A stretch of DNA of 64,000 nt from Psammoneis japonica (lineage: Eukaryota): contig QPGO01000025.1 in NCBI GenBank assembly GCA_008632985.1, positions 186,001 through 250,000 of the forward strand, in the 5' to 3' direction. Shown piece by piece: positions 3,497 through 30,297 of this stretch. The position numbers and the translations under genes are program-made. The stretch's first letter is position 1. Each line of letters starts with the position of its first letter. Under the pieces are notes generated by a model. That model was not told the DNA's origin. It saw only the letters and a program-made list of their open reading frames with translations, and searched no databases.

Positions 3497-6219
3497 GAAA
3501 AATGAAAATCCCGATAAAGGCTAGGACAGTCAGCACAGAATTAGCGCTCATCCATTCGAATTACATTGCAAAAAATTAAACCGAAAGACACCACGACCAA
3601 TGCTTTCTTTTTAGAACAAGGAATAGGGGCCTACGGTTTTTTCCCGAGTTCTTGAAAAAGCGTGCGATTGCTGTTGCGTGCTGCATTGGATGTAATCAAT
3701 GCATGATGATGTTGTGTTTTTGCTGCTGTCCTTGCCGCTGTCATGTGTCATGGGTCATGGCTGTCAGATTGGAAATGCGAGCGGTTCCCGGTTCCCGCGC
3801 CCGCCACACAACGCATCACCCACGCCGTGCGCCGGATTGCATTGAGTCGTGGGTCGTGGGTGGCCTTTTGGGTCGTGGGCGTCGGCGTGCGGCGTGGGGC
3901 GTGCGGCGTGAGGCGTGAGGCGTCGTGCGCAGGGCGTCGTGCGCGGCACTCTCCATCTTGAGTCTATGCGTCGACCGTACCGCGCGCGCTTCGCACAGCC
4001 GCCCCGGACCACCTGATAGACTTTCAGAGAATTCAGACAGACGGTGGCGAAAAATGTGTTCCGGTGCTCTTCTGGATTTGGCTCAATGGCTCAATGTGCA
4101 CAGCACAGAGCTTTCCACACCACGAAACACACCAGAAAATGATCGGTGTCGTCGGTGCATTGACAGCCGCACCTTGTGCCGCTTGCAAGTCGTTGTAAGA
4201 TGTGTTGACAAAGTGCACCATGTCTTTGGAATGGCAAAAGTTGGAAATTGTGTTGTTCACATTTGCCCAATGCTGATTGTGTGTGAGATTGCATGTTTTT
4301 CGGTTGTCACACTGACACGGTGCTTCTTTTCATTGTTTTCTTCAACTCGCTTCAACTCGCGCATTTGTCCATTTAAAGTCATGCATCTGAAAGCGCTTTT
4401 GAGCCAGAGTCCATTTTGCATCAACGTGCAAGTGTTGTCATGCTCTGATGAGGATTTGTTGTGTTCAGCTTTTTCTTCAAAATGTGGCGGCGCTTGCCAA
4501 TGGTGCTCTTTCTCTTTGTGGTGAATGCCCCACAGCTCCAAATGCCAAGACAGCACGTTGTTCATCAACATGTGTCAAAGATGGCACTGAACCGCAGCTT
4601 TGACAACCAAGGTGTGTCATGGACTCAGCTTCTGCACACGTGGCGATGCTTGCAAATCCCATCTTTTTGCATGGTTTCATGACAGTTGCCTCGATTTCTT
4701 GTGATTTAGAATGAAAAATGCCACTCTGACAACTCCAGCTCTGCTGCTGAGCATCACAGCTGAGGTTTTGCAACAGCAGAGATGCTGTTTGCATCTGATT
4801 GACTCACCATCTTGTGCTTTCCTCAAGCAGCTTTCTCAGGGGTGTGAAACAGATGGGCGACATGGAGATTTGTGAGATGTTCCACCGGTGGATTGGTTGT
4901 CTTCTGCAATTGGGGAGCAGCCTCCCACAATGTTTCGTCATCACAGGTGAGCCCCACATTGTCATCTGCCATGCCCCAATGCAGAGCAACACCACCCTTT
5001 GTGGGTTTGCTCATGGAGGGGAGCAGCATGCATTCCAACCTCCCTGCCACCCTCTTTCAAGTCACCCAGGGCCCTGTCAGTTCAAGCTCATCATGACAGC
5101 ACTCATTTCTGCACCAATGTTTCTGCATGATCTCTTTTTGGTGCTCAGCGTTGGCATGGCCGTTGTTGCACCGGGAGAGTCATCCTCTGACAACAAGCAG
5201 AAAGTCAAAGGATGCTGCTGCTCAGTCACTCAAGACAGACAGAAGGGATTGGCTGAAAGCCTCAGCAGAAACTTGCAACAAATTTCCAGTCAAAGCGAGG
5301 TGATCTGTCAGTGACAAAAGACCTGGGCTAGAGAATTTTGCAGCTTGTGAATTGTGTTCTGTGAAATCTGTTGTTTGCAAGAAAACATGGGTGGCAAAAG
5401 ATCTTGTGCGAGCATTCCTTCAATCTTTTTCTGATCCTGTCACATTGGATGAGCTCCCATCCCCTTGCAACACATGGGCTCTGTTGTTGCCAGTGCACCA
5501 ACACCGCCCATGACAAGCACTGTGTCAATTCCGTGGGTGGTTCCTCCATCAACTGAGCATCTGCTTGACTGGACACAGTTTCAGCCTGTGTTGTTCTCTT
5601 GCTAAAAATCTTTGTTCGTGGCAAGAAAACATTGCAAATGAATCATCAACAAGGCTCTCAAGTGCAGAGCCCTTGGCTTCTCACAGTTGCACCGTGTTGG
5701 TGCACGGTCATTGCAGGGGGCTCGTTTTTGCATCATTCTGCACTTTTTCATTCATTGTTTTTTGCAGCAGCATTCCACATCATCGTTTGTGCCACTGTGG
5801 CCAGTTTGCTCCATCTGACAGCAGCAGATGGTGTCATGGTGTGTTTTGCCATGGAATCATCATCTCACTGGTTTCGACACGTGTGGCGCATTGGATTGAA
5901 ATGCTCCATTTTCAATTTTTCAGGGTGGCATGTCCCACAATTGAAACAATTGACAGATGAGTGATCTGCCAAGTGCAGCACCGGCCATCCGCAAGAGCAC
6001 CGGAACACATCGTCTGCATGCAACCCTGGTGCATCATCTGTCTGAATTCTCTGAGAGTCTGTGGACAGTCCGGAGGCATGCAAAGTGCACAACACACAAC
6101 CAATGGACAGACAGAGACTCACGATGGACAGTGGTGGCTTGGGGCATGTGGCATGTGGCTTGGGGTGCAGCAGTGCACACTGTGTGTGGCATCATGCATG
6201 CCACATGTGCGGTGTGCAG

Positions 6220-8361
6220 AGGGTCTCACACTTGTGCCTGGGCAGCCCAGCTGTGGCCCAGCCAACTCTGCCAACTGTGGCTGCCTGTCCCTCCTGTGGC
6301 CATTGTCTGTGACATGTTGAATCAGAGGGACAGCACACTCAATCACAATGTCAGAGGAACATGACAAGCATGCAACTGCCGCACACAGACACACACAAAT
6401 GCTGAAGGACAACATGCTGAACCAGCCAGACCACCTTTGCCTCTTCATGGTCCATCACATGTCACTGCTGTCCTTTCTTCCCTCTTGTCTCCTCTCACCA
6501 GCCTCCCGCTGCACTCACTTGCCAGCTCTGTTCCTGCCCAATGTCTTCCCTCCACATCTTCCACAGCTGAGATGGTCTGCAATGCAAGCTCTGCCTCCCC
6601 ACACCAGCCAACCAACAAACTTCCATCTCCCGCCCTTCTTGTGCAGGCACTTCCAACCCCCAAAGTGACCATGCCTTTTGCTGTCACTCCCTGGGACACA
6701 AAACCACCCTTTTCAATGCCACATGCAATGGCCTTTGTGCCATCCTCCAAACTGTTGGCCTGCTCTCCGGCTTTCCCTTTGTGACAGTGACTCCCTCCTC
6801 TGACACAAGCTCTCATGTCAAGAAAACACACAAGCAGCCATGAGCCATGAGCCACTCTCCTGCCTGCTCCCACCCCTTCCAGCTGCAAGACAATGCCTGC
6901 TTGCAGCGCAGAAGAGTCACTTTCAAATGGCAGCAAACAAGATGGTGACATCATTTTTGGCCTGATGGCTCCTTCTCAAAAAGCACCTGACACCAGCACA
7001 AGCAATGAGAGGCTGTTGTCATCACCAAGGCCATTGCACCAGCAGTCAGGCAGCAAAGGATGTTTGTGTTTCAGTTTCCTGGTGTCTTTGAGAAGGCAGC
7101 TGGTGAGTGCATTTGATCTGCCTGCATTTGATCTGCCTGAATTTGCACTTGTTCATGTCATTTGAATCGAAATCTAACTCCATCATGCGTTCTCAAATCA
7201 GATGCACTGGCACTTTTCAAAGGCAAACTGCCAGAAGGAGGGTTCAGCATTTCTGTTGCAAATCAACCACCTGCATTGAGTGCCAACAAAACAAGTCATC
7301 CAAGGACAAAGCATGGCATGACCAATGCAATGAATCCGCGAGCTCCAAGAATGATGCCATCAAGTTGGAAGTGGCAATGGAGAACCACAAGACAGAGCAT
7401 CACTTTGCTGTCATCCTGCAAAAGAAGATTGAGGAAAGATGCAGCTGGCGAGTGCAATGATGGCAGCAATGCAACCAGAGAGCAGCACCTCATTTCTAGA
7501 AATCTGTGAGACTGACAAAAATCAAAAACAAAAAAGAGATGTGTGTGCATTTGAGTCTCCAGCTCAAATGAGATTCAGGACAAAAAAGTGTGACTTGGGT
7601 GCAACATGAACTGCAGCATGTGTGTTGGAGACTGGACAGAGTTCTGGCCCATCAGAATGCAAGCTGCACAGATGTGTGACATGCACAACCAGAGTCAAAT
7701 CAAAACTTCAGTGGATCATCTGTTTGTTGTTTTTGGGTTGATTGATTGAGTTCCTGGAAATTGCATCCCAGTGCCAACCACCATCTTGGGGAAAATTGGA
7801 CGGCTTTTTTTGGCAGCATTTTGAGATTTTGCAAAGCTTGTTCCCTTGCCAAACTTCATGTTGGTCCTGTGTTTGTTGCAACAGAGCTTGTTTGCACAAT
7901 GCACAGTGGCCCCATGGCTTTTTTTATGAGCATTTGCTTGGCTCTCAGTGCCACGTCATCACAACGGGTGGGTGCTGGGTGCCAAACAATGCACATTGAT
8001 GCATGCCATTTTTGTGTGCCAGGCACCCTGCACAGCAATCAGCTGCAGGCACCTGGCTGCCCCTGAGTGCAAATGTGTGCTTGTCATCCTGGCATCTGAG
8101 TTGTGGGTGATGGGTGGAAGGGCTGGTTGTGGACATGTTGGCATCATGCACAGGGCATGTTGGCACATGGCTTTGGGCATCATGTGCATGGCATGTGGGG
8201 TGTGTGGTGCACAGCATGGGGCATTGTGTGCATGGTGCATGGCATGTGGCATGGGGCATTGTGCCCACATGGCACGCAGGGTCTCACACTTGTGCCGGCA
8301 CATGCCAGCCATGGAACTTTGCCAGCCATGGCCAGCCACTTGTCCTCCTGTGGCCATTGTC
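6220..8361 (+). repeat. Dispersed bipartite repeat, two copies
   Basis: agggtctcacacttgtgcc at 6220-6238 and 8278-8296; cctcctgtggccattgtc at 6290-6307 and 8344-8361. Each copy is preceded by ggcatg/ggcgtg-type arrays. Confidence 0.85.
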
Positions 8362-10564
8362 AGCACCATGCTCATGAAGCCATGCATGGCCAAGAAGCTC
8401 AAAGCTGCCAAAGCTGCGCTGGCATGTTTTCAACCCAGGCGGGTCACTCGGGGGGACAACACACAAGGTTTTCTGCACATTTCTGTCACGCAGAACTGTG
8501 CCCAATTTTCAAGCTCCAGCATTGCTTCACTTCTTTCTCATGCTGGTGCTGCCATGTGAAATTGTCACTTTCAAATGCAGCATGCTCCAGCTCAAAGTGG
8601 GAGCTTGCAGCACATGACACAATTGCTTTTGTCATCCATTGCATGTTTCGCACACACACACTTCTCTGTGTGTCCTCTTCCACAGAATTGTCCACACTCA
8701 CTGTTTTGCAAAGCCCAAGACTTTTTGTTTTCAATGCATTCACAGAAACAACAATGAGTGCCAAGTGCATTCTTTGATGTCTGAAAAATGTGCTTGGACA
8801 AACAAGAAACAATGTGCTTTAATGTCAGACAATTTCAATCATTTGCAAAGTTGCCTCTTGTTCTGTTGGTGACCATTGTTGACACATTCCTTGTTGCTCA
8901 ACAATTTTGCTGCAGAGGTTGCACACAGAATTCTGTGGACCCAACCAGCGTCACATGGATTCCCACCCCCCACATCTGGAGCACATCTTGCACACAGTCA
9001 CCTGCCAGGGCTGCAAAGGCAAGAATGAAGGCACTGATCAACTGTTGAGCTGGCAAGTCAATGTCAACAAAAGGGAACCTTGTTTGGCTGTGCTGCTTGG
9101 TGCAATTGCTTGGTTGCTTGCAGTGGCCATGGGTTGCCCAGAAGTTGTCAATGCAAACTTCAAACTTGCAGCACAACAGACACCCAGCAGCGCCGAGTGC
9201 AAAATCATGTGAGTCAAATGATTCACTCCAAAAAGCAAGATGAGCGGAGAGGTGAGAGAGATTGGTGAAAATGAAATCTCAGTCACAAAGAGTTGCCAAA
9301 TTTGCCACATCAGGAGCCCCACATCTTTTCTTCAATCCACCCAGGTGTCTTGCAATTTCCCACCATGACCCAGACATTCCAGCACACTTCTGCTGCTCCA
9401 ACCAGTGCAATGCCAGCCTGCTTTGCATCCAGGGAAATCTGATCCCTGTGTGGAATGTTGGCAACAATGTCACCATGCACATTGGCTGTGTGGTCAACCA
9501 TGTTGTTGAATGAGCATGCAATGCTTCACACATGCTTCACACATGCTCCGCACAAGCACACAAGCACAGTGAGTTCTCTCTCTTGCAACTTTGCTGCATG
9601 GACCAACAATCTGGCCCTTGATCCAACCATTGTCACCTCAGAAGTCAACTCAAAGAACTCCATTCTGTTGCAAGCTCACCAAATGCATCCATGCCACAGG
9701 CAGGACAACTGACCAACAACAACATCAGCAGCTCATTGACAACGCATCTGTCTGGGGCAAACTGCAACACATTGCCCTGCAATCCTGCTGTGTTGCTGTC
9801 ATCTGCACATGATGCTTGATGACGCAACAGTTGCAATCTTCACAGAAACACCTCCAGGCACAACTTCCAACAATTTGCCAAAATTCTTTGGTCTTGTGTG
9901 CCTCCACACCATGCAGCTCAATTTCAGACAACAGCCTTAGATCATCATGAAGGGAGAACATTGGCACAGTGGCAGACAAATGTTTGTGCACTTTGGGGCT
10001 CCAGACTCCTGCAATCTCCTGTGTGCCCTGCATTGAGCTGCACCTCTTCATCCACAGGTCCTGCCACATGGCCTCAAATGATGACAGATCTTCAGGTGAC
10101 CATGGATGAATGTGCTCCCTCCTCTCTCAATCTCCAGATGCATCAGATGCAGATCCAATGCATTGCAGCAGAGGTGTGGGTCTTGTCTCAAATTGCAGTG
10201 GCTGCCATCATTGAACCATTTGATCTCATCTGTTGCCACACTCAAAGAATTGTCTGGGACTTCTTGTCTTCTCTTGACCATCACATCTCCCAGCCTCTTG
10301 AACTTGTCCCAACAGTGCCACAATGCTGTTGCACTGTCATGTTGTGCAGTGCACTGTGCTCATCTTTGCCAGGCTTCCTTGTGATCATCAACGCTGTGGC
10401 CAATGTTTGTGCTGAAGAACAAAACGCCAATGGAACAAGTTGTGACCGGCCAAACCTTGCAGTGCATGACATCTTCCAGGTTTCAGGGTTCTTTCCTCAC
10501 ATTCTCATTGGATGTCACAAACAGGAAGCACTCCTGTCATGCCTGAAGTTGACAGCCCTTGATG

Positions 10565-12430
10565 GCTCACTCAAACTTTCAGAGCTTCTTGCACTGCAAT
10601 GGCAGTCCAGTCTTGCATGAAGTCTTCAAGCACACCATTGGCAGGAGAGCGCTGTGCTTTTAGACTGCCCTTCTCACTCTGATTGGTGACAAAAAGTGCT
10701 GGTGAACATTGAGTGCTCTGGACAACTTTCCAGCATTCCTGCACCCACCAGTCTCCAAAATGGTGCAGCACTCTTGTTGTCCTGATGCATGATGTTTTTG
10801 TCAACTGGGCGCCATTGATGCTCCATGAATGACTTTGTCCACAGGATCATGGCTGTTGCATCATCAATCCCTGCAAGTTCTGCTTCAGGTGTTGAGCTTC
10901 TGGTGTTTTGACATTGCCTGCACTGCTCCATTCTCCATGGTCACAACTCCTCCTGTGCAGCTCTCAAAGTCTGAACAGCGCACCTCAAATGATTCACCCA
11001 CATGCCACTTGACAGCTGGGGAGGTCATTTGCACTCAATGTGGCATCTTCATTTTGTGCTTGGGGCTCAAATTCTTGAGACAACAACTGGCTTTCCCCAG
11101 CGCTTGTTGGCAGGCTCTCTGACCCGTGCACACCACCATGCAGCAACAGCAGGGCGCACATCCACATGTGGCCTCTCTTGGACATGAATGGCTCCTTGGC
11201 CACCCACACATGGAATGTCTTTGCTTTCTTGGTTGGTGATCTCATGCCACCAGCATCAAACAGGTTCTCTCCAGCTGGCATCATGGCAGCATCTGCACTC
11301 TTGATCTCTTCTGAGAACTGATTGATCATCTTGTCAACACAGTTGGTGGTTGTGTTGACCTTCGCCTTTTGTTCCCTGTGGCTGCAGCCCAGGGTCCTTC
11401 CAAGGTGGCCACCACCCTTCTTTGCTCATGATGTTGCAATGACATTTTGCCACAGCTCCCATGCATCTTGTTTGGCCAGCTCAAAAGTTTGTCAGCGGTG
11501 CTTTTGGGTCCTCATTGTGGCTTGCCAATGGGTCATCCATGTGGAAACGCACAGTGTGGTGCTTGCCATTGACCACTCAATTGGCAACACATGGATTGCA
11601 TGGGTTGAACTCAAACTCTGTCTTCTTCAAGAAGCATTTGAAAAATTATTTGCACTGCAGCAGAGCTGCGGCTGACATGCTGTGTGCAGCTCTGATGACT
11701 TGGGTTCTTGCAGAGGACACTCTTCCCCTTTTCCACAACCACATGTGGTCCACATGGGTTGGGGTCAATGCTGGTTGGCATGTCAACCAACACTCCTGTG
11801 AGATCTTCATCATGATCTGGTCTTTGCCTTCCTCAGGCTCCAAGATCAAGGTCTGTGCAAACGCGCTCGGCACATTGGCGCTCATCACATCATGCTCTTG
11901 CTCAGCTTCAACCACAGCTGTCATCAGCATTCCTTCTGATGCTGCTGCCAGACCAGCTGACTCATCCTTGTCCAGCCATTCTCTGGTCAGTTTTCCACTG
12001 CAAAACATTTGCCCTTTCTCATGTTGCCATTTGTTTCTCCGTCAGGAACATCGGAGCAACCACAACCTTGGTCCTCTCACTCAGAGTCATGTCCTTCACT
12101 GATGCCAGTGCAAAGCACACTTGGCTGTGCAGTTGTTCAATCACTTTCTCTCAAGCATCATGCCCCCTCTGGCCAAATGCTTTTGGGCCTTCATGCAGCA
12201 AACATTGTTGAGCAAAGGAAACACCCTTTCCTGGTTGGAGTCGGTCATCAATCTCACAGCACGTGATTGTGCCAGCAGCACCATTGCTGTTTCTGCATTG
12301 CACTCAATGTTGTCCTTTGGATTGGGGCTCATGTTTGTTTGTAAATGATGGCAGTGTTGAGCTTGTTTTGCTCTTGTTCCATTTCATCAGAGTGTGCCAT
12401 CCCTGCAAATCAAACCTTCTTTTCCTGTGT
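10565..12430 (-). mobile_element. Degenerate Ty1/copia (diatom CoDi-type) pol fragment: RT and RNase H
   Basis: Remnant motifs across frameshifts: GKLTREWLDKDESA..ANVPSAFAQT..IMMKI (RT), PAGENLF..FHVWVAK, and NTRSSTPEAELAGIDD..ILWTKSFMEHQ..KNIMHQDNKSA (copia RNase H, canonical YQDNKS). Confidence 0.9.
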
Positions 12431-12565
12431 TCACATGATTTGATGTTGAAGGATGCACCAAAGGTTGCACCGCTCCAGTGGTTTTTCTGCCAGATGCAGC
12501 TCTTGCCTTTTCCTCCAATCTTTGTCCTTCCCATCTCTTGTCTTCTTGGGATTCATCATCATTTT

Positions 12566-12824
12566 CACCAAGTGGACTGAAGTGTGCTCTTTCGATTGCC
12601 TCTCAATCGAACATGTTTCCGGGTGTTGCACAGTGCGACACATCGGCAATGTGAGTGCCAATTTCACATTTCCCTTGTCCTGTGGATTTGATCAATAAGG
12701 CGTCATCAAAATCTTTGGCATCTATTTGGTCTACGGTAAATGTTGTGTCCTTGGTGAACTTTGTCGGGATTTTCTGAGCAGGTTTTTCGACCGCATCGGG
12801 AAATTTGAATTGCAAGCCAAACTC
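12566..12824 (-). pseudogene. rnr: Bacterial-type RNase R (RNB domain) fragment
   Basis: EFGLQFKFPDAVEK..TTFTVDQIDAKDFDDAL..GKCEIGTHIADVSHC..PG..D*EAIERA/TSVHLV matches the RNase II/R motifs DAKDFDDA, HIADVSHY and RATSVYLV. One stop, one frameshift and an apparent internal deletion. Confidence 0.85.
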
Positions 12825-12925
12825 GCACCCGGATGTTTCAATAAAAATTGCGTGAAACAACCACTGGTTTACCGGTATATATTTTTATTACATACCATGT
12901 ATGAACCAAAAATTTACGAGTTTAC

Positions 12926-13672
12926 CTATTGAGTTTTCTCTTGTTGTTGAATGTATTGATGGATAACAGCTTTCAGGGCTCGATTGGGTATTAAATCATC
13001 CCTAGAAATGGGCCTACGAGTAATCGGAGAACGACTGTTGCCTCCAGAAAGCCATTGGATGATGGCTTCTCGTTCATAGGAGTGTCCGTCTAAATCTATC
13101 ACTGGGTCCACCATGATGGAACCCGTGATTGGACACATCATTGTTCTCTCCAACATGTTCCTCGGGTCGCCATCAGAGCCATAAACTGTTGTGTCTTGCC
13201 TTCGATAATTGAAAAAGGCTCTTGCCAACATGCCCAGAACGCCACCAAGTTGACATTCGCTCTGATCCCTCTCCCAAGTTGTTGTAAAGTCTCTTTCTTG
13301 ATAAATGCTGCCTGAGGCTTCGTCGCTATCATGGGAATGGGCATCGACAGACTCAACGCTAGATACACTACTCGAGGCAAGATGAGCCACAAATGATGCT
13401 TCCTCTCTAGGACCATAGTCATCAAAACCTGGATGACGATAGAGTGGATCCATGAAGGTAGATTGGTGCCGCGCTCTCGAGGAAAATAAAGACACCTCCT
13501 CGGCAACCTCAACTCGAGTGGGCGTCAAGGTTGGATCCAATGGGGGTCGCCGACTGTTCACAATGCGACCTCTCTGTTCCACGCTCGTCAGTCTTCGATG
13601 AGCATTGCTCCTATGTGTCAAGGTTGGATCCAGTGGCGGACGTCGCCTCCTCATGTCTTCCATCCAATCCAT
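12926..13672 (-). CDS. U-box domain protein (putative E3 ubiquitin ligase)
   Basis: C-terminal CPITGSIMVDPVIDLDGHSYEREAIIQWL..SPITR..LIPNRALKAVI. N-terminal RRPPLDPTLT occurs twice. Confidence 0.9.
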   Translation of the reverse strand: MDWMEDMRRRRPPLDPTLTHRSNAHRRLTSVEQRGRIVNSRRPPLDPTLTPTRVEVAEEVSLFSSRARHQSTFMDPLYRHPGFDDYGPREEASFVAHLASSSVSSVESVDAHSHDSDEASGSIYQERDFTTTWERDQSECQLGGVLGMLARAFFNYRRQDTTVYGSDGDPRNMLERTMMCPITGSIMVDPVIDLDGHSYEREAIIQWLSGGNSRSPITRRPISRDDLIPNRALKAVIHQYIQQQEKTQ

Positions 13673-14114
13673 GCCGCTACTGTTTGTAGAGCGAGCTTGT
13701 CATGGCGGCAGCGCCGAACAAGTGAAAGTGATGAGTGATGATGCGTGAGATGGGCGGCAAGGCAGGGGCAAGCGTTGACTCACGAATGGGAAATAAACTT
13801 TTATTCAGTGCGATACATTGAACATAATATTATAAAAAATATAACATTACGTTTTAAAACATTACGCGCCTGCCGGCCTCAACAGCTTTCCACCTCTTCG
13901 GGAATGCCTGAACGGGACCGGGGCAATTCTTTCCAAGGCGGTTCCCTGGGCTTTCGTTTTTGCTCCTCGATTCGTTGCTTCGAGAACTCTCACATCCACG
14001 CCTCAATCGTTTGCGGTGCTGCGTCGTGACACTCGTCCTTTGGTGCATCTGACACATGGCCTTGATCAAAAGACTCGTGTGAAAAGACCACTGGGGGGGC
14101 AGCAACAGGCGCTC

Positions 14115-15431
14115 GATGTGTTTTCATCCCAGGTGAGAAACTTTTGGACACATCACGAGGTTTTCTACGTGTTTCTACATGAGACGTACATTTAGCACCA
14201 AAAATCTTAGTAAAAAACGAGCTCCATGACAGTAAAAATGTGTTTTTCCATGTCTCGAACCACAAACCACAATTCGCGCAAACCGAAAATGGCACCATGC
14301 CGTCGCCATGAACTCGTCCATTCTCACACCAACGGATGTTGTGACTGAGAAGGCAAGAATGCCGAGACAGGTCAACAAGACAACGCTCAATGCGATGATG
14401 TGGTTGAAAATTTGATCTTTGTTTTTTGTTGTGCCTTGTGGACAGCCTTTTGACTCATGACATTTTTGATGCCTCTTTCTCTCTTCCTCAGCTTGCGAAG
14501 CAGGATTCTCATCAACGCGCTGCTCCATCCACTTGACACCGGATGCTGACAACGAAGAATGTTTCCATGACACGTTGCTGTGATTCTTGCAATGCATTGT
14601 CCGCACTTTGAGTCGTCATGGACGACGCTTTTGGGTCGCGCGACAACATCAGATTTCGCTTCCGACAAGAGAATCGTCATGTGCTCGGTTTTGAGGGTGT
14701 GTGAGGATAAAGAATCTCAGATGCAAGTGTGACAGTTTCATCATTGTAAAGCAGAACAATGCCATTGGCGACATCTCAGTGTTGCAGCCATTTTGTTTTA
14801 TTCTAAGATAGAACCAGTCATTTTGAGCGGTGAAATTTTGTCAACATTTCATCTTTAACTCTGCTTGGGCATGTCAAATCACATGACAACTGGACACACA
14901 TTGAACTTTGACGCCACTGTTTCAATCCCATTGTTTTATTCACTCAAGTGTCCCACACAGGTCGACAAATCAGTCGATCTTTGAAATGGCCGATCGCGCA
15001 AAAAAATCACGTGCGAAGTCAGTTCCCCCGATTTTTCTCATGCAAACAACAGAGTTAGAACGCCGTTCTTTTTTGGCATGAGCTCTTTGTGCAATGAACA
15101 ATGCGTGCATTCTTTCAAAGCAGTCAGATTCGGTGAAAGAAACAGCAGAATGGTCTCTCAAATGCACCAGAATGACAACAACGAGCAGACAGCTGTCAGT
15201 TTCACTCCAAAAAATGCCGCTTTCGAGACAGCGCTTTTCTTGCACACACCCTTCAACCAATGAGAATGACAGCTGGCTTTTCAAAACAAACATGTCTGTG
15301 GAAAGAAGAAACGAAAAATCGGGGGAAAGTCCAGTCAGATTTGCTCGCACAAAAAGCACGGCGATGGAAAAGGGACAGACGAAACGTCTCACCTCCGCAT
15401 GCGCGTTTCTCACCTGGGATGAAAACACATC
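14115..15431. mobile_element. Non-autonomous TIR DNA transposon (MITE-like, 1317 bp)
   Basis: Perfect 27-bp inverted repeats (gatgtgttttcatcccaggtgagaaac at 14115-14141 and 15405-15431) flanked by the 4-bp direct repeat GCTC (14111-14114, 15432-15435). Confidence 0.9.
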
Positions 15432-17705
15432 GCTCGAGATCTGCTGGACCCAAAACCTTGCTTCATCCCGCAGCACCAGCACAGATGACAAGACAGCCAA
15501 AAGGACTTTGCACAATGATTGGCTGCAAAAAGAGGAGTGCAATCACTGCAAAAAGCACAAAACAGAGCATCCCCGACAGCACATCTGCCAGAAAGAGCAT
15601 CATCCGCCGCAAGAGCCAGTGTCGGCGCAACGCCGCCACAACAAGATGAGAAGCAACATGGCCACGTCAACTTTGCTGACCCTGTGGGGAAATTTCCTTG
15701 GAGGGGCATTGCACTCTTTGTCATTGTCAAGGGACTTGAGTTCCAAAAGCTCCTGGTGCTCATGCAGCAGAAGGGGAGAGCATGTGGGGCAACCTTGCAG
15801 TGACCAGCCAACGGATGGCATGATTGGGAGCTCCTCCTTGAGGAGACCCCAGGCAAGTTGCTGTGACTGTGAGTTTCTTGTTGGAGCAAGGAGGCTCCAT
15901 TCTTGCTGACAGCTGAGTCAAAGGCTGCTGGGGTGACTTCACAAACATCCCCCCAACAGTGCATGCAGAGACAACTCTTGCAGCCAGCACGATGATTGCA
16001 GGGGGGTGGGGGGATTTTTCCACCTCTGGAAATCTTCCACACATCGCATTTTTCAGATTTTCTGTCTGTCATCTTCTATGCAAAATGGTCTGTGCACAAG
16101 CATCACTCCAGCCAGACCAGCAATGCCAGCTGCCACATGTGTGGGTTTGAGGGTTCCTCTCAGCACACCATGCAGTGCAAGTGGACAAGCCACTTGCTTC
16201 ACAGAGTTGTCATTCGTCATTCATGATGGCCTCAAATGCAACTGCACAATGGAAAATCTTTTTTTGCCACAGTCAATCTGCTGCTGCTTCATTGCTGTTT
16301 GCCAAACAAACGTCGCACACAGCAACCAAGATCAATCTTTCCCGCAGCATTTTGCTGTTTCAATTCAGGGTGAACTCTCCTTTGCCATGCAGAAAGATGT
16401 GCAAAACAAGTGCCAGATTGTTGGGTGCAACTAAAAATGACACACCATGGTGCTGCTGCGATTGCTTCCATTTTTTCAACATGCTGCACCCTTGTCAGGT
16501 TCACCGCCTGTGCCGCTGCAAGGTGGGCAACTCAAAGAGACACCACAGCATGCGTTGAAGATCAGCTTGAACTGCTTGTGGGTGCCATGAGCCTTGCAGC
16601 AATGCTCTGACATGGTGCAGAGAAGTTCAGAGTCAGTGAGTGCCAGCTCAGACATGTTGGTGTGAAAGCACTGCCTTTTCTGTGGCAAACTGCCTTGCGA
16701 CACTTCAAAAGAATGGAGAAATTTTAAAATGACCAGTTGGAGGTTGCTTGGAAAGAAGGGTGGCACTTTTGGAAACATTGCTGTGATGCATTGTGATGCA
16801 CTTCAAAAAACAATCCAGAACACAGACTTGACACAAGTTTGCACACAACTTCCACATTGAAAGCGGGACTTTGTTTTTTCCTTCCACTGTTTGCCAAGTC
16901 CTTGAGATTTAACTGGGGTGTTCTCTCAAGGTGCACTTGGCTGCAGTGGGAGAAAGGAGCAAAAGACTTTGACAAGCACTCAGTGCTGCTCTGTTGCTTG
17001 TTGTTTTTCACCCAAAGAACCAGGCAATCTTTTGTGACAAGGCACACAAAGATTGGAAATGTGGTGTTGCAGGCATGGCCAAGTTTTTTGATGACACAAG
17101 TGGGCACCAGTGGTTTTGACAACCCAAATGCCAGCAGCAAGACACTGAGCATTTGTGTTCTGGCAGTCAGCCTGGTGGTGAACTGCCGCAGGCACGTGTG
17201 AGTGCTGCAGCATTGTCAGTGGGATGCCAAGCACTGGCATGGTGCATTCCAACAGTCAGCTCCAACTGCACCATGCATGGACAAACTTCACAACATGCTC
17301 AATGGGTGTCAGTGGCTGTGTGAAATTCCCGCTGCAGATCATGTGTGATGCCCCAGACACTGGTGTGCATGCGGTGCTTCTTGCTTGAGCTTGGTGTTGT
17401 TCGTTGAACCAAGTCTGACCACAAGTGTTAAAAATGTGCAGATTTGCATGATGACAATTTGTCAAAATGTTGCAAAACATTTTTGTTGTGTGATGAAAGG
17501 CCAACCTCTGGTTGCAAGTTTGCCACACCAATGTTGCAACAACTTGTTGAGAATCATGCATGATGTGTTTCTCTGTGTCCACATCACCACATCTGCCTCC
17601 ACCTTGTTGCCATGTGCCAATGCGTGATTGCATTTCCACACAATCCTTGGTTTGCCAATTTTCACAAACATCATTTTAAATGAGAAAAGCATTTCATCGG
17701 TTGAG

Positions 17706-18949
17706 TCAATCCCTTGTCACGTCTGCAGTGCAATGACCGAGTGCTGTGTTAACTGTGCACACATTTTCTTGCCACAACTCTCTTGAACTAAGCCAACGAT
17801 CATCATCGGACTCGTCTCCATCGGACTCGTCTCCTCCGTCATCCGTTTTGCCTTTTGCGCCTTCCTCCTGCTCATCGTCGTCACTGTTGTTGTCCCTGCT
17901 GCTCTCCACCATCAGGCTGTTCATTGCCTTCACCTCATCCGCATCACCGGCCGGTGCTTTCTTTTTCTTCTTTTTTGCTTCTCCGGACTTCTCATGCTTG
18001 CTTTTCTTGATCTCCGCATGCCACTTTTCAAACTCCTTGCCCTCCTTGGAGTCTCTGTCTTTCGTCACCTCTTTGCATGAATCGTTGGACCAATTGATTC
18101 CGTCGTCTCCCCAAGACACTCATTGTTTCTTTGGCTTCGTGTGCCAAGGGGCAGGCCTTGTTTCTTTGGGCTCCATTTCCTCACCCAATTCTTCCACCGC
18201 CTCCTCCTTGTTCCTGCATGCCCACACCTGCCAACAATTCTCCATGGCTGACAGCGCCAAAGCTTCGTCACCGACCGCAAACAACTGTGAGACTTTGTGC
18301 GTTCCCAGTTTTGACGGTGCTGCTCCGCGCCTGCTTTTGCTTGGTTTGAGGCAGGATGTGATCACAGAACCACTTGTGTGCCTGCTTGTTCCTTTGTTTG
18401 CCGCCGGTGACAGTGTCTGGGCCAAACGGATCCCATGTCGGCACAAACGGGATGTCATTCTCTTCACTCTTGTCACGGCTTGACTTTTTCCTCTTTTTCC
18501 TCCTGTCTGCCGCCTTGAGTTTCTTTTCTTTTTCCTTTCCCTCTTCCTTTGGTGACAATGCCCACATGGACAAAGCATCACCGTCATCTTCTTGTGAGAT
18601 GCGCGCAACTCTCGAATCACACACATTGGTCACTTGACTTGTGGGCCATTGCCTCCGCCCCAATGGCTGAACACACCGTGTTTCTGCGATTGTCAATTTG
18701 CCTTTTTACCACCTTTTTTGCCCATTCCTCCCAAGTTCCTGACCAATTTGAAGTGTCCATGTTGCCGCCAGCAATCTGTTTCTTGACAAACATTGAGACG
18801 CTCCCATTGCTTGCCAATTCTGATGGACTGAGAAACTTCACCTGTGGAAAGAGATCATTTCCAGCCACCTTCTCTGCTTCTGATTTCAATGCACCATGCG
18901 CTGCCGGCGTGCCTGTTCTCTTCAACACTGCCTGAAGTCTCGGGCTCAT
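17706..18949 (-). pseudogene. Degenerate accessory ORF of the type seen beside diatom Plavaka transposases
   Basis: Frameshifted pieces: LFPQVKFL..RRNTVCSAI; KWFCDHIL; GDEALALSAMENCWQVW; WGDDGINWSNDSCKEVTKDR. Divergent from the transposase. Recognised from memory of the family, not from a search. Confidence 0.6.
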
Positions 18950-19457
18950 TGGCTTGACAGTCTCATTTTTTTTCTCTTCTTTGCCGGTTGTGCTGGAGAC
19001 GACATCTTGATCTTTTCACGGCAACAATGAGAGGAGTGGCACTGTTTGACAGTGCAACCGTCGTTTGGGTCGTGTTGAGACAGCCAGGCACTCCATTTTT
19101 CTCTGTGACATTGCACAAGTTGTTGTCAGCAACATTGAAATTTGAAAACACATTTGCACACAACAACAAACAGCCCAACTTGCTTTTTGACATGGCTGTC
19201 ATTGCGTTTCAACGGAGATGATGTCCTGCATTTTGACAGCAAATAAAAAGCACAATGTTCATTGTGGATGCCAGACAAAAAATCAAAATGCAGACATGCC
19301 ACACCTGTGAGAATCATCCCAATCTGGAAGACAATGTGATGTTTGCCAATTTCCCGCCATTTTTTTTGTGTTGTTCCTTTTTTCCCTTCTCATCCACAAG
19401 ACAAGGATGACGAGCATGAGTCTTGATGAAGGCCCTGTCAACATTGTCTGATTTACA

Positions 19458-22400
19458 ATGGATGGAAACCCTCTTCTCTGTCCCGGTTGTGGCCAAAGTT
19501 TTTTGCGAACAGCCTGCCATTGGAGATGCTCACCGACGTGTTGCTCAGTTGCCCAAGAGTTGCAAACCCAAGATCCAATCCCAGATCAAAGCGACATTCC
19601 TGCCACAACAGAGGGGCCACCTGAAGAAAGTGGCAGCTCTTCCTCTTTGTCCTCTGATGATGACGAATCCCATCCGAGGCAATCAACTTGCAGCAGATTC
19701 CCAAGATCTTCAACGAGTGATCCGAGCAGCAGCCCCTTGTTCCCCTCCCAGGATGACGCACCACACGGAATGGACGACATGTCCTCCATTTCATCAAACC
19801 ACAGCATGCAAGGAGTTGAACTTTTGGCAATGAACGATTTGGATGTTGGCGGTGGTCAATCCTTTGCTGCAGTGTTGGACGTGACAATGGAGGAGGAAGA
19901 GGACATTGACGATGAGGACCAACGTTTGGGATCAGGTGTGACGCTCCTGCAGAAGAGGCCTTGGCTTCTGCTCCCTCTTTGACTAATCTTGACGGAGCTT
20001 GCGCAGAGTTGTGCAAGAAGCTCATGGACACACGTGGTGCTCCCCTGGAATTGCACAACCACATTGTTGATTTCATTGAGAGGCACACTGGCAACAGCAA
20101 CATTGAGCTTGGCACAGTTCTGCCAAGGAGAAAAGAGTTGATGCGTGCCTTAACCAAGCATTTCCCTCTTCCACCCAGCGAGTCCATTCCTGTCACTCTA
20201 GAAACCAAAAATTTCAAAACCGGTTTGCCAAAACGAGTGTCAGTGCCAAGATGGGATTTCACAAAGGTTTGGGAACAGTTTTTGCTCGATCCTCACCTGT
20301 GGTGCAGCAGAGAGAACATGGCCGATCCAGACAATCCTTTTGGGAAGTGCAAAGCGAAGGGACCCAGATGACAAGTGCCTTTTGGCGGGTGAGTGGCACA
20401 GGCGCAGTTGCGAAGAACGGATGACTGACCCAGAGAAACAATTTCTTGAGTGCAATGTCATTTACCTCAACAAGACTGGCAGGACACAAGGGATGGGATC
20501 ATGTTGCGGAGAACCAGTGATCATGACCTCTGCGCATGTTGCCTTCAACAAATGGTCAGACAAGAGTGTCTGGAAACCAATTGGTTGTCTCCCGGATTTG
20601 GAAAAGATGTCGTCATCTGCGGCAAAGAATCTCTCAAACAATCGCAAGGCGGAGAAGGGACGCTCGTCAAGAGACTGCCACACTTGCTTGCGTGTCATTT
20701 TGGAGCCACTTTTGGAAGTCATGAGAAAAGGAGGCATGAAAACATGCGTGCGACGAGGGGATGAGATGCGACACCTCCACGCAATCCCGCTGATCGTTCT
20801 CATCACAGGAGATGCAAAAAGCGGCGACTGTCTCGTCGGACGATGCGGAGGTCACAACTGTCGTCAACGTTGCTGTCGTTTTTGCCTCACTGGCTTCAAC
20901 AAACTGGACGACCCATGGATTGAATGCGAGTTATCCGAGGACTGGATCTCCACCAAGTGCAAACCAAGGCCAACGACGACAACAGATCAGACCAAGAAAG
21001 GAAGCACTGGTTGGGCATCTTGCATCACCTCAAGCAACACAACGCACCTGCCAACTGTCTTTTTGAGGCAGACTTTGGCACACAACCACTCGGCATTGCC
21101 CTTGCGACAGCAAGCAACATGATGCATCTCTTTGAAAACGGCACCTTGAAAAGGGCAATCAATTCATTTGTAGACAGCATGACACCTGTGGTCGCAAGTG
21201 AGGTGGACAGCATGGTGGAAAGGATTTTCAGCAATCACCGGTCAACTTGCAAAGCATCCTTTTTGCGAACAAACTTCAAAGGAGGAGCAACGTCGCTTGC
21301 CTTCCTCAACTCTCACCGCTGGGCTGGAATGGCTTTTGTTTTCTGCCTTCTCCTGTTGACCAGCGAGGGACGAAACGCATGTGAGTCATGCTTCCTTGAC
21401 GAGGACGCAGACGAACCCATTGTTCCAGAGAATCGCAAGATGCCCAAAGTGAACTTTGAGAGCCACTGCCAACCTAGTGAGTGCTTGAACGACTCTGACA
21501 ATGAAAGGTCGGAGGAGTCCAAAGAGGGTGACTGGGATGCAAATGAGGATGAGAAAGAGGAGAGTGAGGCTGAGGATGGTGACGACAACCAAAAAAAGAA
21601 AAAACACAAGGGAAAAAGACTCAACTGCAGCGTCTGGCAATTCATTCAATTGCTCGAGGACCTTCTTGTCTTCCACGCATGGTGCAGGCTGGGCGATCCA
21701 CCCATCACAAGCGCAACTCCCAGTTCATCTGTTCAGAAAACAAACAAGAAAATCCGTCTCCTCATTGACCGGACAGTGCAATTCGTCCCGCGAACAGAAG
21801 GATGCGGGTGGAAGCTTCAAAAGCTTCATGAAACACTCCATCTCCCAGTGTTTCTTTGTTGTTGCCGACATGCGATGAACTTTGATGCAGGCTTGGGGGA
21901 ATGTCTCTTGAAAGACTTTTTCAAGCTGCCGTCATCTGCCGCACAACAACGCAACCTCGACAGTTTTCTGAAGCAGGTCGTGTCGCGTGTGGAGGACCAA
22001 ATGAGGCTCAACGCCGCAATTTCAGCCAACAGTTGGATTTTGCCAACTGGGAAAAAGGAATCATCAAGAGTCAGGACGGACAATCACACACTGGGAGGAA
22101 GTGCGTTCACTCTCACCTACAACCGAGGGATCGGCGCTGTGACGTTTGAGTGGAACAGCGAGCATGCTCGTTGCCAAGTTCATCCTGTGTTGCCAAACTT
22201 CATGTCGGAAAAGTGGGAGGATTGTGTTGGTGAAGACAGTGAAAATGCACACCTGACTTGCAAGACAGAGTTTTGCAATGCAACGGGAGGGATGCGCACC
22301 GTGCGCACCCCGATTGCAAAAGCGAAGGACCATGGCATGACTTTGCCTGTGTGACCTTTGGCACACGAAAGGGCGATCAACAGTTTCCCTCCCGTTTGCT

Positions 22401-22730
22401 GTGTTTCTTCGAAAAGGAAGACACAGGATTGATTTTTGCAGTTGTCCATCCAACTGCTTGTCAAGCTGACCAGAGAACTGTGAGGCAACGGCATCAGCAT
22501 GCAGACTTGGTCAGTCGCTGGCAGCTTGATCACAAACGAAACAACTGGCTTTCAACGCCTGAGAAGACTCAGTGCTCACCTGAGTTACGTGTTGTCCCTG
22601 TCGAAGCAATTGGGGACAATGTTTTGGTTCATGAAGAATGTCCAGGAGTGGCAGAAGCGCAAGAAAAGGCCCCATTTGTTTGGGCTGCACAGGACAGAAG
22701 GAAGTGTTGGTCAGATTTGTTTCTAAAATG
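19458..22730 (+). mobile_element. Degenerate Plavaka-type transposase
   Basis: N-terminal CxxC..H finger, then DPDNPFGK, GEWHRRSC, IYLNKTG..EPVIMT..WKPIGCLPDLE, ITGDAKSGDCLVGRCGGHNC..CRFC, MMHLFENG, WKLQKLHETLH..NFDAG.GE and HRAHPDCKSEGPWHDF. Several frameshifts. Confidence 0.8.
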
Positions 22731-23859
22731 GGGCACGCATGTCAATCTGTCATTCACTCACAGTGTGTGCATTTTTAGAGCAATTGCTTCCTCATGGATT
22801 CTATGCAGTGTCCACTTGCATGGTCCATTTGGTCATCCTGCGCCATGAAATGTTCCCTGGCAGCCACAATCGCCTGCTGAAAGTCGGCGCTGTGGTCAGG
22901 CTGGTTGACAGCCACCAATTGTGCCTCGATTTGCAATGCCAACTGCAGGACCCTTTCTCTTGCCACGGCTTCTTCGTCCATGGCCCGGATCGCGGTCCAT
23001 GTCCCTCCCCGCATTTGATCTGTGCCTGGCCTCAGATCACACAAAGCTTGCCACTGTCGCTGCAAGGCAACGTCTTTCCTTCTCAAATCGTCGAGGGCCT
23101 CGTGGAGCAACGTGATTGCATCCTTCAGGATGCGCTGCGGCTGTGTTAGATGTCGCCTTCAAAGGAGTGGCACGGCATGGCAGTGGATGGATTTGTCGAT
23201 GCTGTCAATCGCAGATTGCTCCCTCTCCACTGCTCTGTTGGCGTCTGTGTCAGAATTTGCCCTGAGGCTTCTCAGAAGCAACGTCAAGTCACAGCTGTGC
23301 AGCATGTTTAGCCTGCATTCTGATTTTTGATGTCCCGCAATGGAGATTGGGAGCCCCAATTCTTTTGCATCAAATGCGTTGCCGTGAAGAAAGCGTTGGA
23401 AACTCATTTCCGCTTCGCTGTGATTTTCCACTGCAACAACACAGTCGTTGTCTGAACAGTGTGTCTCGATCGATGACTTGATGCACTGCGCACAGATGTG
23501 CTTAAATTCGCAAGTGGTTGTTGCTTGATTTAACAAAGCACTGTCAAGTGCGGTCGTTGCAGCCACAACGGCACAACGGGCTTCTGCCATTGCTTCAGCC
23601 GATCTTGACACAGCAGCCTTTGCATCCTTTGCTCTCTGTTCCTCCGAACAACGAGCAGCGTCAGCGTGAACAAAACCATCAACTGTCTCCATCATCCGGC
23701 GACGGAAATCCTCAGCAGCGGATGGACGGAGTTCATCTGACATGGTTTTCTTCTAATGCTCTGATTGTTGTGGTCATGGGTCCACCATTGCATTCACCAG
23801 ATTGGTCATGCGTCAGTCACAAAATTCTGGTTTCTGTGGAAATGTGCCAGAGTGGTGCA

Positions 23860-23940
23860 TGGGAGAAGTCACATGCGCGCCTGGTGGGATTTGGAGTTTT
23901 GCACACAAAAACCCACCAGACGTGCATGTGACTTCTCCCA
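23860..23940. repeat. Hairpin-forming inverted repeat (29-bp arms, 23-nt spacer)
   Basis: tgggagaagtcacatgcgcgcctggtggg (23860-23888) vs the reverse complement of 23912-23940; 2 mismatches. Confidence 0.92.
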
Positions 23941-26319
23941 GAGAAATCCTGCGTGAGATTGTGCCGGGAAAGGGCAATGCGGAGTGTGGAATTGATGGAA
24001 GAAAACATTGTGAAAACATGCATCAGGAGAAAGGGTGCATGCACTGGAAAACAACATGGATTTCTACACACACGTTAAGGTGCGTGAAGAACATGTGGGT
24101 GCCTTCAAGTGACGCATGCGAACAATCACAAAGAAACATTCGGAAATGGGGACAGCATGGAGAGAAGTCAGAAACATGGATCCAAAACAAAGTGACACAC
24201 GATGAAGGCGACGGTGACGGGATCGATGAAAAAGAAGGATTCGGATGGAAAGACGCCGGAGACGGTGAAAACAGGCGGCGCCAAGACGAAGAAGGAAGAG
24301 AAAAACAGGACAGGAAAAATGAAGAAAGAGAAAAAGAAGCAGACGACACAATGTCAAGAGGGGAGCAGCGATGCGATTCTGCGTTTCGAGGGACCTCTTC
24401 CTCTCGATGATGTTCACCCAAATGCAAGAAATGCAGTGTGGCTTTTTTGGAACGGTGACGAGGAAACATCCAACGCGGCAGCGGCACACTTGAAATTCTT
24501 GCAAGAGAGCAGACAAGACATGCATGGAATGAAGAGGACGATGTGGACGAACAGGCCAATTGGAGCACAGTTGTTGACCAAACAATTGGTGCACACTTTG
24601 CATGATGAAAATTTCATTGCATGCAATTGCAGTGTTTGGCTTGTCGTTGAAGATCGTCAGTTGTTGTGAAAAAGGCTGAGCATAAAAATTAAAAAGCATC
24701 TGTGTTCAAACATGAAGAACAGCAGGAAATTAACAATTGACCAAATGACAAAAACCATCATGTGCAGATGAGTGGATTTTATGACACAGCAACATGTTTT
24801 TGTCATGTGTGCAGACACTGCGATGTCGTGCACTCTGATGCGTGGTGCAAGTCTGTTGGTGCAAAATTCCAAACTGGGTCATTGTTGTCACTGTCTCTGA
24901 CATCAAAATGCAGCATTGCTCTGCAAGCTGGGACACATCACTCATCAGGGGCTCCCCCGCCCTTGCTCTGTTTCTGACACGTTGAAGCAAGATTCGTTGG
25001 ATGGAATGACACACAACAAGAAATGAACAGAAAAATGGAAACAGTGTGTCCACTCACATTGTTGCAATGTCTTTTCTCAGCACATCTTGAAAAGTTGAGA
25101 AGAAAGTGCCAACCGGCAGCTTGTCGCAGATGCCGCAGCCTTTGGCTTTTGCATCGGCATCGGGTGTGACATGTTGAGATGAGTTGGCTGCTTTTTCGGC
25201 AAACTCTGCCTTGAAAGCAAGCAGCAGCTCAGGATCCAATGCAGCACATTCACAGTTGGAGATTCTGGGTGTGTGCTCCTTTGTCTCCCTTCCTTGGCAG
25301 AAATGTGCCAGCAGACGCAAGATGATGAAAGCTGTTGCTTTCGCAGGCTTCAGTTTGCGCGATCTTTTCGATCCATCGAAGGATGATTCTTCCCCCAAAT
25401 GAGACAAACTGAGCTCACCATCATGATGTCAAGTGCTTGCAGTGGGCCTGTCAATGGCCTCTTCAGGTGGTGCGCTCACGCGTCGCTTGCCATGGCGGGT
25501 GATGCGGCCGGTGCTCATGGTTGTTTTTTGCGGAAGAATCTTGGAATCTGGGAGTTGCATGAAATGTCAAAATTTTCGTTTTTCCCTGCAAAAAACGCAC
25601 AGAATGTCAGAGAGACCTGCCTGCACGCGAGTGCCGCCACAGTCTGCACGATGCTGCGAAAGTTTGTGCACTTGCCACCAAAACGCTGCTCGCACTTTTT
25701 GCCAGGGGACATGCCACAGACACACAATGTTGCATTTGGCTGCAGGACAAATCCTGTGTTTTTGGGGCTCTGTTTGATTTGACAAAATGTCGAAATTCCA
25801 TGGAAGGTTTCTCAACAATTGCCTTTTTTCCCAACCAGTGCTGAGACAAAATGCCCCCAGAAATGCAGGTGGTTGTGTCTTCACCAGACCCCGCCAAAAT
25901 TTCTCGTTGAGAAGACAACCGACTGGATGGAATGAGAATGTTTAAATGATGTTGCACAGTGCGTGAAAAATGACAACCTGCACTCACTCAATTGGGTTGG
26001 CATGGTGACATCAAGCACTGAAATGAACGACAAAACGGTGCGATAATCGATGATGACGACACCTTCTATCGGTGCCTGCCTGTGCGCTCATTTTCTACTG
26101 TATTCAAATTTGTATATCCATACATACATCATAAGTAGTTGCTGTGAGCACATCACGTTGTCACGGCGTTTCTGCACGCATGATGATACGCATGGCACCG
26201 TACGTACGACTGCAAGAGACGCCGTTGAGTTCCCTTCTCGATCCCGAACTCCGATTTGAACCAGTCACGACTGTCTCAACCTCATCGCTTCGTGCGATAG
26301 TACAGATTTCAAATTCAAA

Positions 26320-29759: not shown

Positions 29760-30020
29760 CTAAAACGCTCGGTCGAGCGGGAAGGACGACTCATAGACAT
29801 TGTAAAGGCAGCAGTCCTCAAAACAATCTTGAATCATTTTTGCATCACCCCAGCAGCAATCCTTCATGATGTGACCCAGCTGCGCAATCTGCCCTTGACC
29901 AAGTTGAGGCTGCTTTTCAGTCGTCCGCTCCTTCCTGACTAGCACAAGCTCTCGACTCTCGATTGTGACACCTCTTCCTCCAAGACTTTGTGGTCATTGT
30001 TTTCATTTATGTCAATCGTC
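29760..30020 (-). pseudogene. Degraded, truncated paralogue of the 1487-2026 gene
   Basis: QIAQLGHIMKDCCWGDAKMIQDCFEDCCL vs QIAQLGHVMKDCYWGDAKTIQDCFKDRYL. Confidence 0.85.
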
Positions 30021-30297
30021 ACAGCGTCTTCTCTTGGAAGGTGGCGCAAGCCATTACCGATGTGCTGTCGGCACTTGTCGATGTCGAGGCGCTGGTTGTG
30101 GTGAGTGGCGGTTTTCCCGCCAAATTTGGTCGCAGTTCACGACCCAAAACACGTTTGAAAGATTCCCGCCAACAATGTTCAACATTGCGGCACGACTTCT
30201 GCGGTGCCGGTAGATGACACGGGCATTGGGAACCGCTTGGCATTGTCCTTGTTGCTTGCTTTCTCAGATTGGCCACTGGAAATTGATCAATAAAAAA

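Follow-up and report, generated by a model that had tools for sequence, protein, structure and literature searches.

Our analysis leads us to a reading that we consider likely: a foreign scrap of an RNase R gene (rnr), of a type near that of the FCB bacteria, occupies the 3′ flank of a U-box gene, has decayed neutrally, and is cut by the edge of a positional domain of TpA hypermutation. The window, by which we mean the whole 64,000-base stretch of DNA that was analysed, contains eukaryotic genes, among them those for an LHC/FCP protein, an HSF, an APS reductase and a CDPK. The FCP is ~78% identical over 195 residues to the solved Fcpb7 fucoxanthin chlorophyll a/c protein, which we take to be a diatom protein, and it starts with a signal peptide ending in an AFAP-type motif. 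On this basis we type the host as a diatom or a very near relation of diatoms. The best match of the APS reductase reaches only 56% identity, and none of its near relatives carries a name, implying that the lineage is poorly sampled.

A Broken Fragment of RNase R Beside a U-Box Gene

The minus-strand open frame 12606-12884 carries the motifs quoted in the original prediction, and on this strand they lie at the coordinates it had given, from 12824 (first base of the E in EFGL) down to 12566 (last base of the final V in TSVHLV). The fragment consists of a linker, HAI..EFGL.FKFP..VE, followed by the first ~70 residues of the RNB domain. DAKDFDDAL, which is RNB motif I with its acidic cluster D.DDA, occupies profile columns 266-274, and HIADVSH, with the HIADV of motif II, columns 289-295. 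The Pfam RNB model (PF00773) matches over 4-51 of its 326 positions with E 3.3e-11, and the score of 43.5 bits exceeds its cut-off of 29.3. TIGR02063 RNase_R aligns its positions 218-300 to residues 22-93 (E 4.3e-13), at 48.5 bits far under the full-length equivalog cut-off of 597.85. Our own RNase R profile, built from 39 full-length hits, gave E 4e-21 over positions 220-304, with an 11-residue gap in the window sequence; its coverage runs over positions 220-311 and, past a frameshift, 312-317. In size the fragment comes to ~290 bases, or ~105 of ~720 codons (~15% of the protein), and it corresponds approximately to positions 210-317 of the 709-position RNase R profile. It begins ~70 bases past the stop codon of the U-box gene, on the same strand.

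The homology is more extensive than the 12566-12824 originally described. Upstream it starts at ~12857, with the HAI..EFGL linker, as seen in an alignment with short homologs; downstream it possibly reaches ~12541, if changes of the type found in the TA-free islands described below are undone.

No intact open reading frame is left. Past an in-frame TGA (Table 1) the same frame resumes with EAIERA, and a 1-base shift near 12584 then leads into TSVHLV, ending at 12566. The RATSV.LV motif that had been read earlier is present; it needs this 1-base frameshift, which the earlier reading lacked. The 11-residue deletion, the TGA stop and the frameshift together mean that the fragment is dead. It also lacks a start codon, and the RNB catalytic domain, which in full spans 326 positions and takes in motifs III and IV, is incomplete. 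When the window was searched in six frames with the full-length profile, neither CSD1, CSD2, the rest of RNB nor S1 was found elsewhere.

Table 1. Positions of the features discussed in the text, with dinucleotide ratios (rho) where determined
Feature	Position	Strand	rho TA	rho CG	rho CA+TG	Remarks
RNase R pseudogene fragment	12566..12857	minus				linker after CSD2 and start of RNB domain
In-frame TGA stop of RNase R fragment	12603..12605	minus				profile column 305
1-base frameshift (extra C) in RNase R fragment	12584..12586	minus				between ..EAIERA and TSVHLV
Possible second RNase R scrap, RNB motif IV (..HF.SPIR)	10678..10743	minus				suggestive only
U-box protein ORF, 257 aa	12929..13699	minus				Pfam U-box E 1.6e-17
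Edge of island 1	12696..12697	.				outermost TA before the TA-free stretch
TA-free margin of island 2	13864..14097	.				contig depth 41.8 (single-copy)
Island 1	3966-12695		0.03	0.22	1.92	15 TA in 8731 bases
Island 2	13864-25943		0.06	0.60	1.59	
Island 3	39937-41600			0.20	1.86	1 TA
Island 4	56596-64000		0.04	0.17	1.71	
Other segments	rest of window		0.51-0.61	0.90-1.01	1.13-1.22	

Relatives of the Fragment

An exhaustive HMMER search of 1.84 billion representative proteins, used after a word-index protein search for longer proteins had found nothing, returned 1026 matches at E<=1e-3 and 17 at E<=1e-10. The best relatives are RNase R proteins at 55-69 bits, headed by one with 69.1 bits and 58% identity. 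Full-length relatives have 707-750 residues and are matched near residue 220-320, which is the layout of bacterial RNase R. We checked 30 top representatives, including all 17 with E<=1e-10. An organism name was attached to 8 of these and not to the other 22, and a eukaryotic label to none. Seven of the named clusters belong to Bacteroidota and one to Zixibacteria (Limibacter, Porphyromonas, a Bacteroidia MAG, Roseivirga, Alistipes, a Flavobacteriales MAG, a Bacteroidota MAG and a Zixibacteria MAG). A scan of GTDB, with one genome per species, confirmed 555 stretches as relatives of the fragment; by title, the best 80 of these comprise 79 from Bacteroidota and one Planctomycetota MAG, a count that is biased because the scan patterns were derived from an alignment of near hits. 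Among solved structures, DIS3L2 scored 32.1 bits against the fragment, DIS3 ~27, and two bacterial RNase R chains 31.8 and 16. The named clusters, the GTDB titles and the structure scores agree with the original prediction that the fragment is closer to bacterial RNase R, above all that of Bacteroidota, than to DIS3 or DIS3L2. The comparisons thus support a bacterial-type RNase R whose nearest kin appear to be those of the FCB group.

A FastTree phylogeny of 147 sequences and 98 columns, built without named outgroups (control genomes gave no loci), placed the fragment weakly (support 0.79) with six sequences that include the Zixibacteria MAG, outside the named Bacteroidota. The fragment's own branch is long (0.69, against a median of 0.34). 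A protein search and a phylogeny had been proposed as a check on bacterial affinity; the first gave top representatives free of eukaryotic labels, and the second does not discriminate between donor phyla. An Atlas feature search recognized RNB only, in clusters of RNB fragments whose commonest phylum is Pseudomonadota, taxa that are not alignment-based. A scan of metagenome contigs gave 6 loci, all at no more than 46% identity, and among them neither a close donor nor an orthologous locus. Together with the best protein identity of 58%, this implies that the transfer is old or that the donor lineage is unsampled. From sequence comparison we conclude that the transfer is unlikely to have been recent. 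Direct horizontal acquisition as a scrap is plausible but unproven, and we regard it as the likely route.

Islands Nearly Free of TA

Four stretches of the window, which we call islands, have lost almost all TA (Table 1). We found them from dinucleotide counts per 500 bases and delimited them by TA-free gaps. Within them, TA falls from ~18 to 0-3 per 500 bases as CA+TG rises from ~72 to 100-145; across the four, rho TA is 0.01-0.06 and rho CA+TG 1.59-1.92. TA depletion is therefore coupled to CA+TG enrichment in clustered windows, and the near equality of CA and TG in number within the islands implies that both strands are affected. CG is also reduced, by ~80% in islands 1, 3 and 4, and island 2 keeps 60% of it. 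Because island 2 retains this much CG, and because some island margins are free of TA with normal or high CG, the two losses are separable: TA loss and CpG decay are separate processes or of differing age. Fungal-type RIP, a C>T change at CpA that enriches TpA, was considered and is ruled out by the near absence of TA from the islands.

Self-BLAST of the window found no repeats common to different islands. An 828-base duplication outside the islands (1750-2552 and 29798-30599, 79% identity) shows a normal TA content, implying that duplication alone is insufficient for hypermutation; its second copy overlaps a PAP_fibrillin ORF. There is also a perfect tandem duplication of an 86-base unit at 37604-37774, in the interval that separates the HSF and APS reductase genes.

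The Edge of Island 1 Lies Inside the Fragment

Island 1 ends within the RNase R fragment. Island-ward of 12696 the next TAs are at 12342 and 11647; outward they follow at 12723, 12732 and 12737. The inner part, 12541-12695, is 155 bases long and contains 5 CG and not a single TA, for which P is 0.002 at the normal rate. The outer part of the fragment has 5 TA, and the TA codons that the original prediction described as kept outside the island are indeed there, with TA at 12696, 12723, 12732 and 12737.

Because conserved RNase R columns reveal the ancestral codons, they show that the TA-free state arose by mutation in place, and they also tell which way the changes went and locate the edge of the process with a margin of ~30 bases. 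Inside the island, the codons differ from the profile by Y>C at columns 284 and 296 (both TGT), V>A at 297 (GCA from GTA) and Y>H at 315 (CAC), the four substitutions that had been predicted, and also by S>L at column 275 (TTG from TCG). In each of the three Tyr-dominant columns inside the island, Tyr has given way to Cys or His, the sole products of TAY under a TA>CA/TG process. With ancestral states taken from the profile, the changes are TAT>TGT twice, GTA>GCA and TAC>CAC, a small sample of A/T>G/C transitions at TpA that includes either strand. The stop had been attributed to CGA>TGA; the TGA at column 305 is compatible with a former CGA, but the profile probability of R there is only 0.07.

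We also compared the two sides of the edge for strong mismatches, defined, in our own reading of the codon-profile comparison, as positions where the consensus residue has a probability of at least 0.3 and the observed residue less than 0.05, with the stop counted. Undoing a single TA>CA/TG or CG>CA/TG change reverses five of the seven inside the island, the exceptions being at 12656 and 12611, and none of the four outside it (12767, 12761, 12755 and 12728).

A Spared Gene with TA-Free Margins at Single-Copy Depth

Only 1167 bases, 12697-13863, lie between islands 1 and 2, and their TA content is normal (4.5%). This spared stretch comprises the U-box ORF, ~160 bases upstream and ~230 bases downstream. 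The non-coding flanks retain TA too, which implies that the sparing is regional rather than the outcome of site-by-site selection. The edge may mark the end of the U-box transcript, or the place where silent chromatin gives way to an active U-box transcription unit.

Contigs and read depth, from one DNA sample that is perhaps the source of the assembly, are independent of the assembler and not of the organism. Depth was resolved in 200-base bins and a few listed contigs, with a single-copy level of ~46-62. The summed depth over island 1 is 90-480, or 2-10 times the single-copy level, implying a family of diverged repeats. The fragment's neighbour is thus repeated DNA by read depth, and our own reckoning from the depth bins puts the end of the repeat at about 12590 ± 50 bases. 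On the other side of the U-box gene, the margin of island 2 has no TA in its 234 bases (P 9e-5) and 18 CG, and very high depth starts only beyond 14097. On both flanks of the gene, then, the TA-free state enters DNA that contig depth would class as single-copy, for 100-250 bases and beyond the reach of CpG decay. This lends indirect support to a mutation domain defined by position rather than by sequence class, one that spreads onto single-copy neighbours as the original prediction held.

The left end of island 2 is itself a very high-copy repeat: the summed depth over 14123-15500 is ~5,000-11,000, against ~46 for single-copy DNA, and in one contig 15 other letters separate 14097 from 15431.

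Depth also bears on the idea that the fragment is part of the adjacent repeat, for example a gene piece captured by a transposon, in which case nothing would have spread onto a single-copy neighbour. The bin 12515-12715 has a depth of 91, above the single-copy level, and past the homology the minus strand runs into a purine-rich tract, as this idea would allow. Against it, 12663-12791 is covered by only two contigs, at depths 30 and 32, which resemble two alleles, and 12761-13715 by a single one at 46.5; the outer half of the fragment is unmutated; and the flank across the U-box gene has the same TA-free margin at single-copy depth. We judge membership of the repeat to be quite improbable, and prefer a domain that runs from repeated DNA into a single-copy fragment.

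The neighbouring repeat had been described as a copia relic to which the fragment was fused. None of the 99 island-1 ORFs of at least 55 aa matched a Pfam reverse transcriptase (RVT_2), integrase (rve) or gag domain (11 ORFs were scanned at E<=0.001 and the rest at E<=0.1), regex searches of the four islands found no degenerate copia motifs of YVDD, HxRLGH or DSG type in context, and self-BLAST of the window showed no LTR-like long direct repeats. The copia claim is therefore not sustained by these searches, although heavy mutation may mask copia traces. A weak match to a Plavaka (KDZ-type) transposase in island 2 (20202-21119, plus strand; E 4.8e-4, below the cut-off) is the sole transposon-like Pfam match in any island.

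Contigs Across the Edge and Differences Between Copies

Contigs of run X1 match pieces of the islands with 0 differences, at depths of 32-45. A half-depth bubble contig (30 of 62) covers at least 12663-12791, across the island edge, and has a G at 12694 that restores the predicted ancestral Ser codon TCG. A contig of 950 bases, the one at depth 46.5 over 12761-13715, joins the outer half of the fragment to the U-box gene. Read continuity across both junctions had been named as a check: contigs do cross the edge and link the fragment to the U-box gene, and at the left junction, 12541-12600, none of the listed contigs is shown to bridge.

Among 40 listed differences between window and contigs, four are adjacent double differences, at 9987/8, 10069/70, 11909/10 and 14501/2, in which one copy has TG and the other CA. 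These imply that one ancestral TA or CG was converted in place, independently, in two copies or alleles. At 10002 and 10976 the other copy keeps TA and the window has CA.

The half-depth contig also differs from the window at 12719, 12731 and 12760, all within 67 bases of the fragment's outer half, which implies high local heterozygosity beside the island edge. The conserved residue survives in the window and not in the half-depth contig at 12719 (A267) and 12731 (D263). The AT-rich spacer that separates the fragment from the U-box stop, 12824-12907, is covered by a single X1 contig, which has 3 substitutions, a 6-base deletion and a 1-base insertion relative to the window, all of them at full depth; the differences reflect either the other allele or an assembly error.

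These data make it hard to credit an artefact, whether bacterial contamination joined on by the assembler or TA and CG miscalled at modified bases in long reads. The spacer differences and the origin of all the DNA evidence in one sample, perhaps that of the assembly, would be in keeping with one. Yet a contaminant would have to be a fragment of ~290 bases with eukaryotic sequence on both sides, linked to the U-box gene by a contig of normal depth and itself bearing the island signature of the host; miscalling is at odds with the exact matches of contigs to island stretches and would not be expected to yield double differences of the TG/CA kind.

A Possible Second Piece of the Gene

A candidate for a second RNase R piece, with an HF.SPIR resembling RNB motif IV, lies 1.85 kb downstream of the fragment in island 1, on the same strand and in colinear order (Table 1). 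With mutation-aware scores it reached 25 bits, against maxima of 15-19 in six control scans, and it was matched by 26 of 39 tblastn queries; with the full-length profile its HMMER E of 0.67 is not significant. Its spacing is 1.85 kb where 0.7 kb would be expected, and we regard it as suggestive only. A mutation-aware likelihood-ratio score found no further rnr pieces in the window. An earlier version of the score, which took the maximum over possible ancestral codons, was discarded for its upward drift in controls.

Alternatively, the fragment might be what remains of an rnr gene that once stood complete in the nucleus, whether acquired long ago from bacteria or a host RNase R targeted to an organelle, and that was destroyed by repeat insertions and deletions until only codons ~210-320 and perhaps motif IV were left. 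The strand, order and scores of the HF.SPIR piece speak for such a history, as does the fact that the fragment stops where repeated DNA starts. Its weak profile score and excessive spacing speak against it; so does the failure to find CSD1, CSD2, the rest of RNB or S1 in the window. Moreover, the U-box stop stands ~70 bases upstream, where 640 bases of the 5′ part of rnr would be expected, and the 30 top representatives include no eukaryotic relative. We consider a once-complete gene unlikely, though less so than the artefact or repeat explanations, and continue with a foreign scrap as the preferred reading.

The Context of Leftover TAs

All islands together retain 81 TAs, of which 49 (60%) stand in Y-TA-R contexts (TTAA, TTAG, CTAG, CTAA), compared with 17.6% of the 1363 TAs outside. 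The contexts ATAT, ATAC and GTAT do not occur among the 81. We fitted ten context classes with an additive model, worked by hand from the counts, in which the rate of the A on each strand is set by its 3′ neighbour; the fit assigns ~2.2 log units to T, ~1.9 to C, ~0.9 to G and ~0.55 to A. By this model, mutation of A would be 2-4 times faster in T-A-Y than in T-A-R. The natural target of TadA and ADAT enzymes, A34, always follows U33. A preference for T-A-Y fits an enzyme of this kind, and by analogy an adenine deaminase of the TadA/ADAT type may be the agent.

Discussion

The course of events that we favor may be put as follows. The rnr piece would most likely have entered as foreign DNA, whether as a scrap or as a longer insert broken up later, presumably by direct transfer, and would then have decayed neutrally through the 11-codon deletion, the frameshift and the stop. 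At ~12560-12590 it would abut repeated, silenced DNA that has undergone near-complete TpA>CpA/TpG hypermutation and slower CpG decay. The TpA process, probably acting on a chromosomal domain, enters the fragment for ~105-155 bases and halts sharply at 12696; the fragment's outer half, the U-box gene and its flanks retain their normal TA content.

As a piece of RNase R, the fragment shares with the enzymes of TIGR02063 and PF00773, in their Bacteroidota/FCB form, the linker and motifs I and II, colinear with positions 218-317. Unlike them it is a fossil, broken and without CSD and S1 domains. Bacteroidota are common partners of diatoms, and transfers of bacterial genes into diatom nuclear genomes are known from the diatom genome literature. 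The present case resembles those transfers in being a bacterial-type coding sequence in an algal nuclear chromosome, and differs in being a short dead scrap rather than a domesticated gene.

RIP of fungi likewise hypermutates repeats domain by domain, through transitions at a specific dinucleotide, and also reaches slightly into unique flanking DNA. It turns CpA to TpA and so enriches TA, whereas here TA is erased and CA and TG are enriched.

A TpA process has been described in Bigelowiella natans. In mutation-accumulation lines of this chlorarachniophyte, according to the available text of the preprint, mutations in two integrated viral regions arise at ~1000 times the rate of the remaining genome and are nearly all A>G or T>C, always at TpA; TA-poor, CA+TG-rich windows form 124 clusters in that genome, and the authors propose that an ADAT2-like deaminase is responsible (Mettrop et al., bioRxiv 2026, 10.64898/2026.01.13.699255). 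On the basis of that text the two systems are alike in that TA is lost with a reciprocal rise of CA+TG, both strands are hit, and the process is confined to silent, foreign or repeated domains and overruns the annotated element. They are unlike in host, which here has a diatom-type FCP; in degree, with rho TA of 0.01-0.06 here and 0.45 in the NCLDV region there; and in the CpG decay that accompanies TA loss in three of the four islands here. Two further points of difference from the preprint text are the edge, mapped here within 30 bases inside a protein-coding ruler, and the preference for TAY over TAR, of which that text contains no report. A full-text literature search, with most subscription journals outside its scope, found no report of TpA hypermutation in diatoms and only the B. 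natans preprint on the process; term searches of the available text of PMC2806351 and 10.1101/2025.10.24.684338 gave none in diatoms either.

A fuller reading is possible, and we put it forward tentatively, with somewhat more doubt than assurance. A B. natans-like TpA hypermutation would operate in a diatom-type alga, near completion and bound to chromatin domains rather than to sequence identity. It would cut one contiguous foreign-derived segment, come to a halt within ~30 bases close to where an active gene ends (3′) and spread 100-250 bases into single-copy flanks beyond CpG decay, and its faster action on TAY than on TAR, by a factor of 2-4, would recall TadA/ADAT.

The RNase R scrap is in itself an ordinary genomic fossil; its value is that of a built-in ruler. 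Read against that ruler, a phenomenon from one 2026 preprint on a chlorarachniophyte would extend to a second, distant and ecologically dominant algal group, and its targeting would follow the domain, not the foreignness or repetition of the sequence itself. Three questions thereby become testable: what causes the boundary, be it chromatin state or transcription; which enzyme is responsible, with a TadA/ADAT-like deaminase as the candidate; and whether the activity is ongoing.
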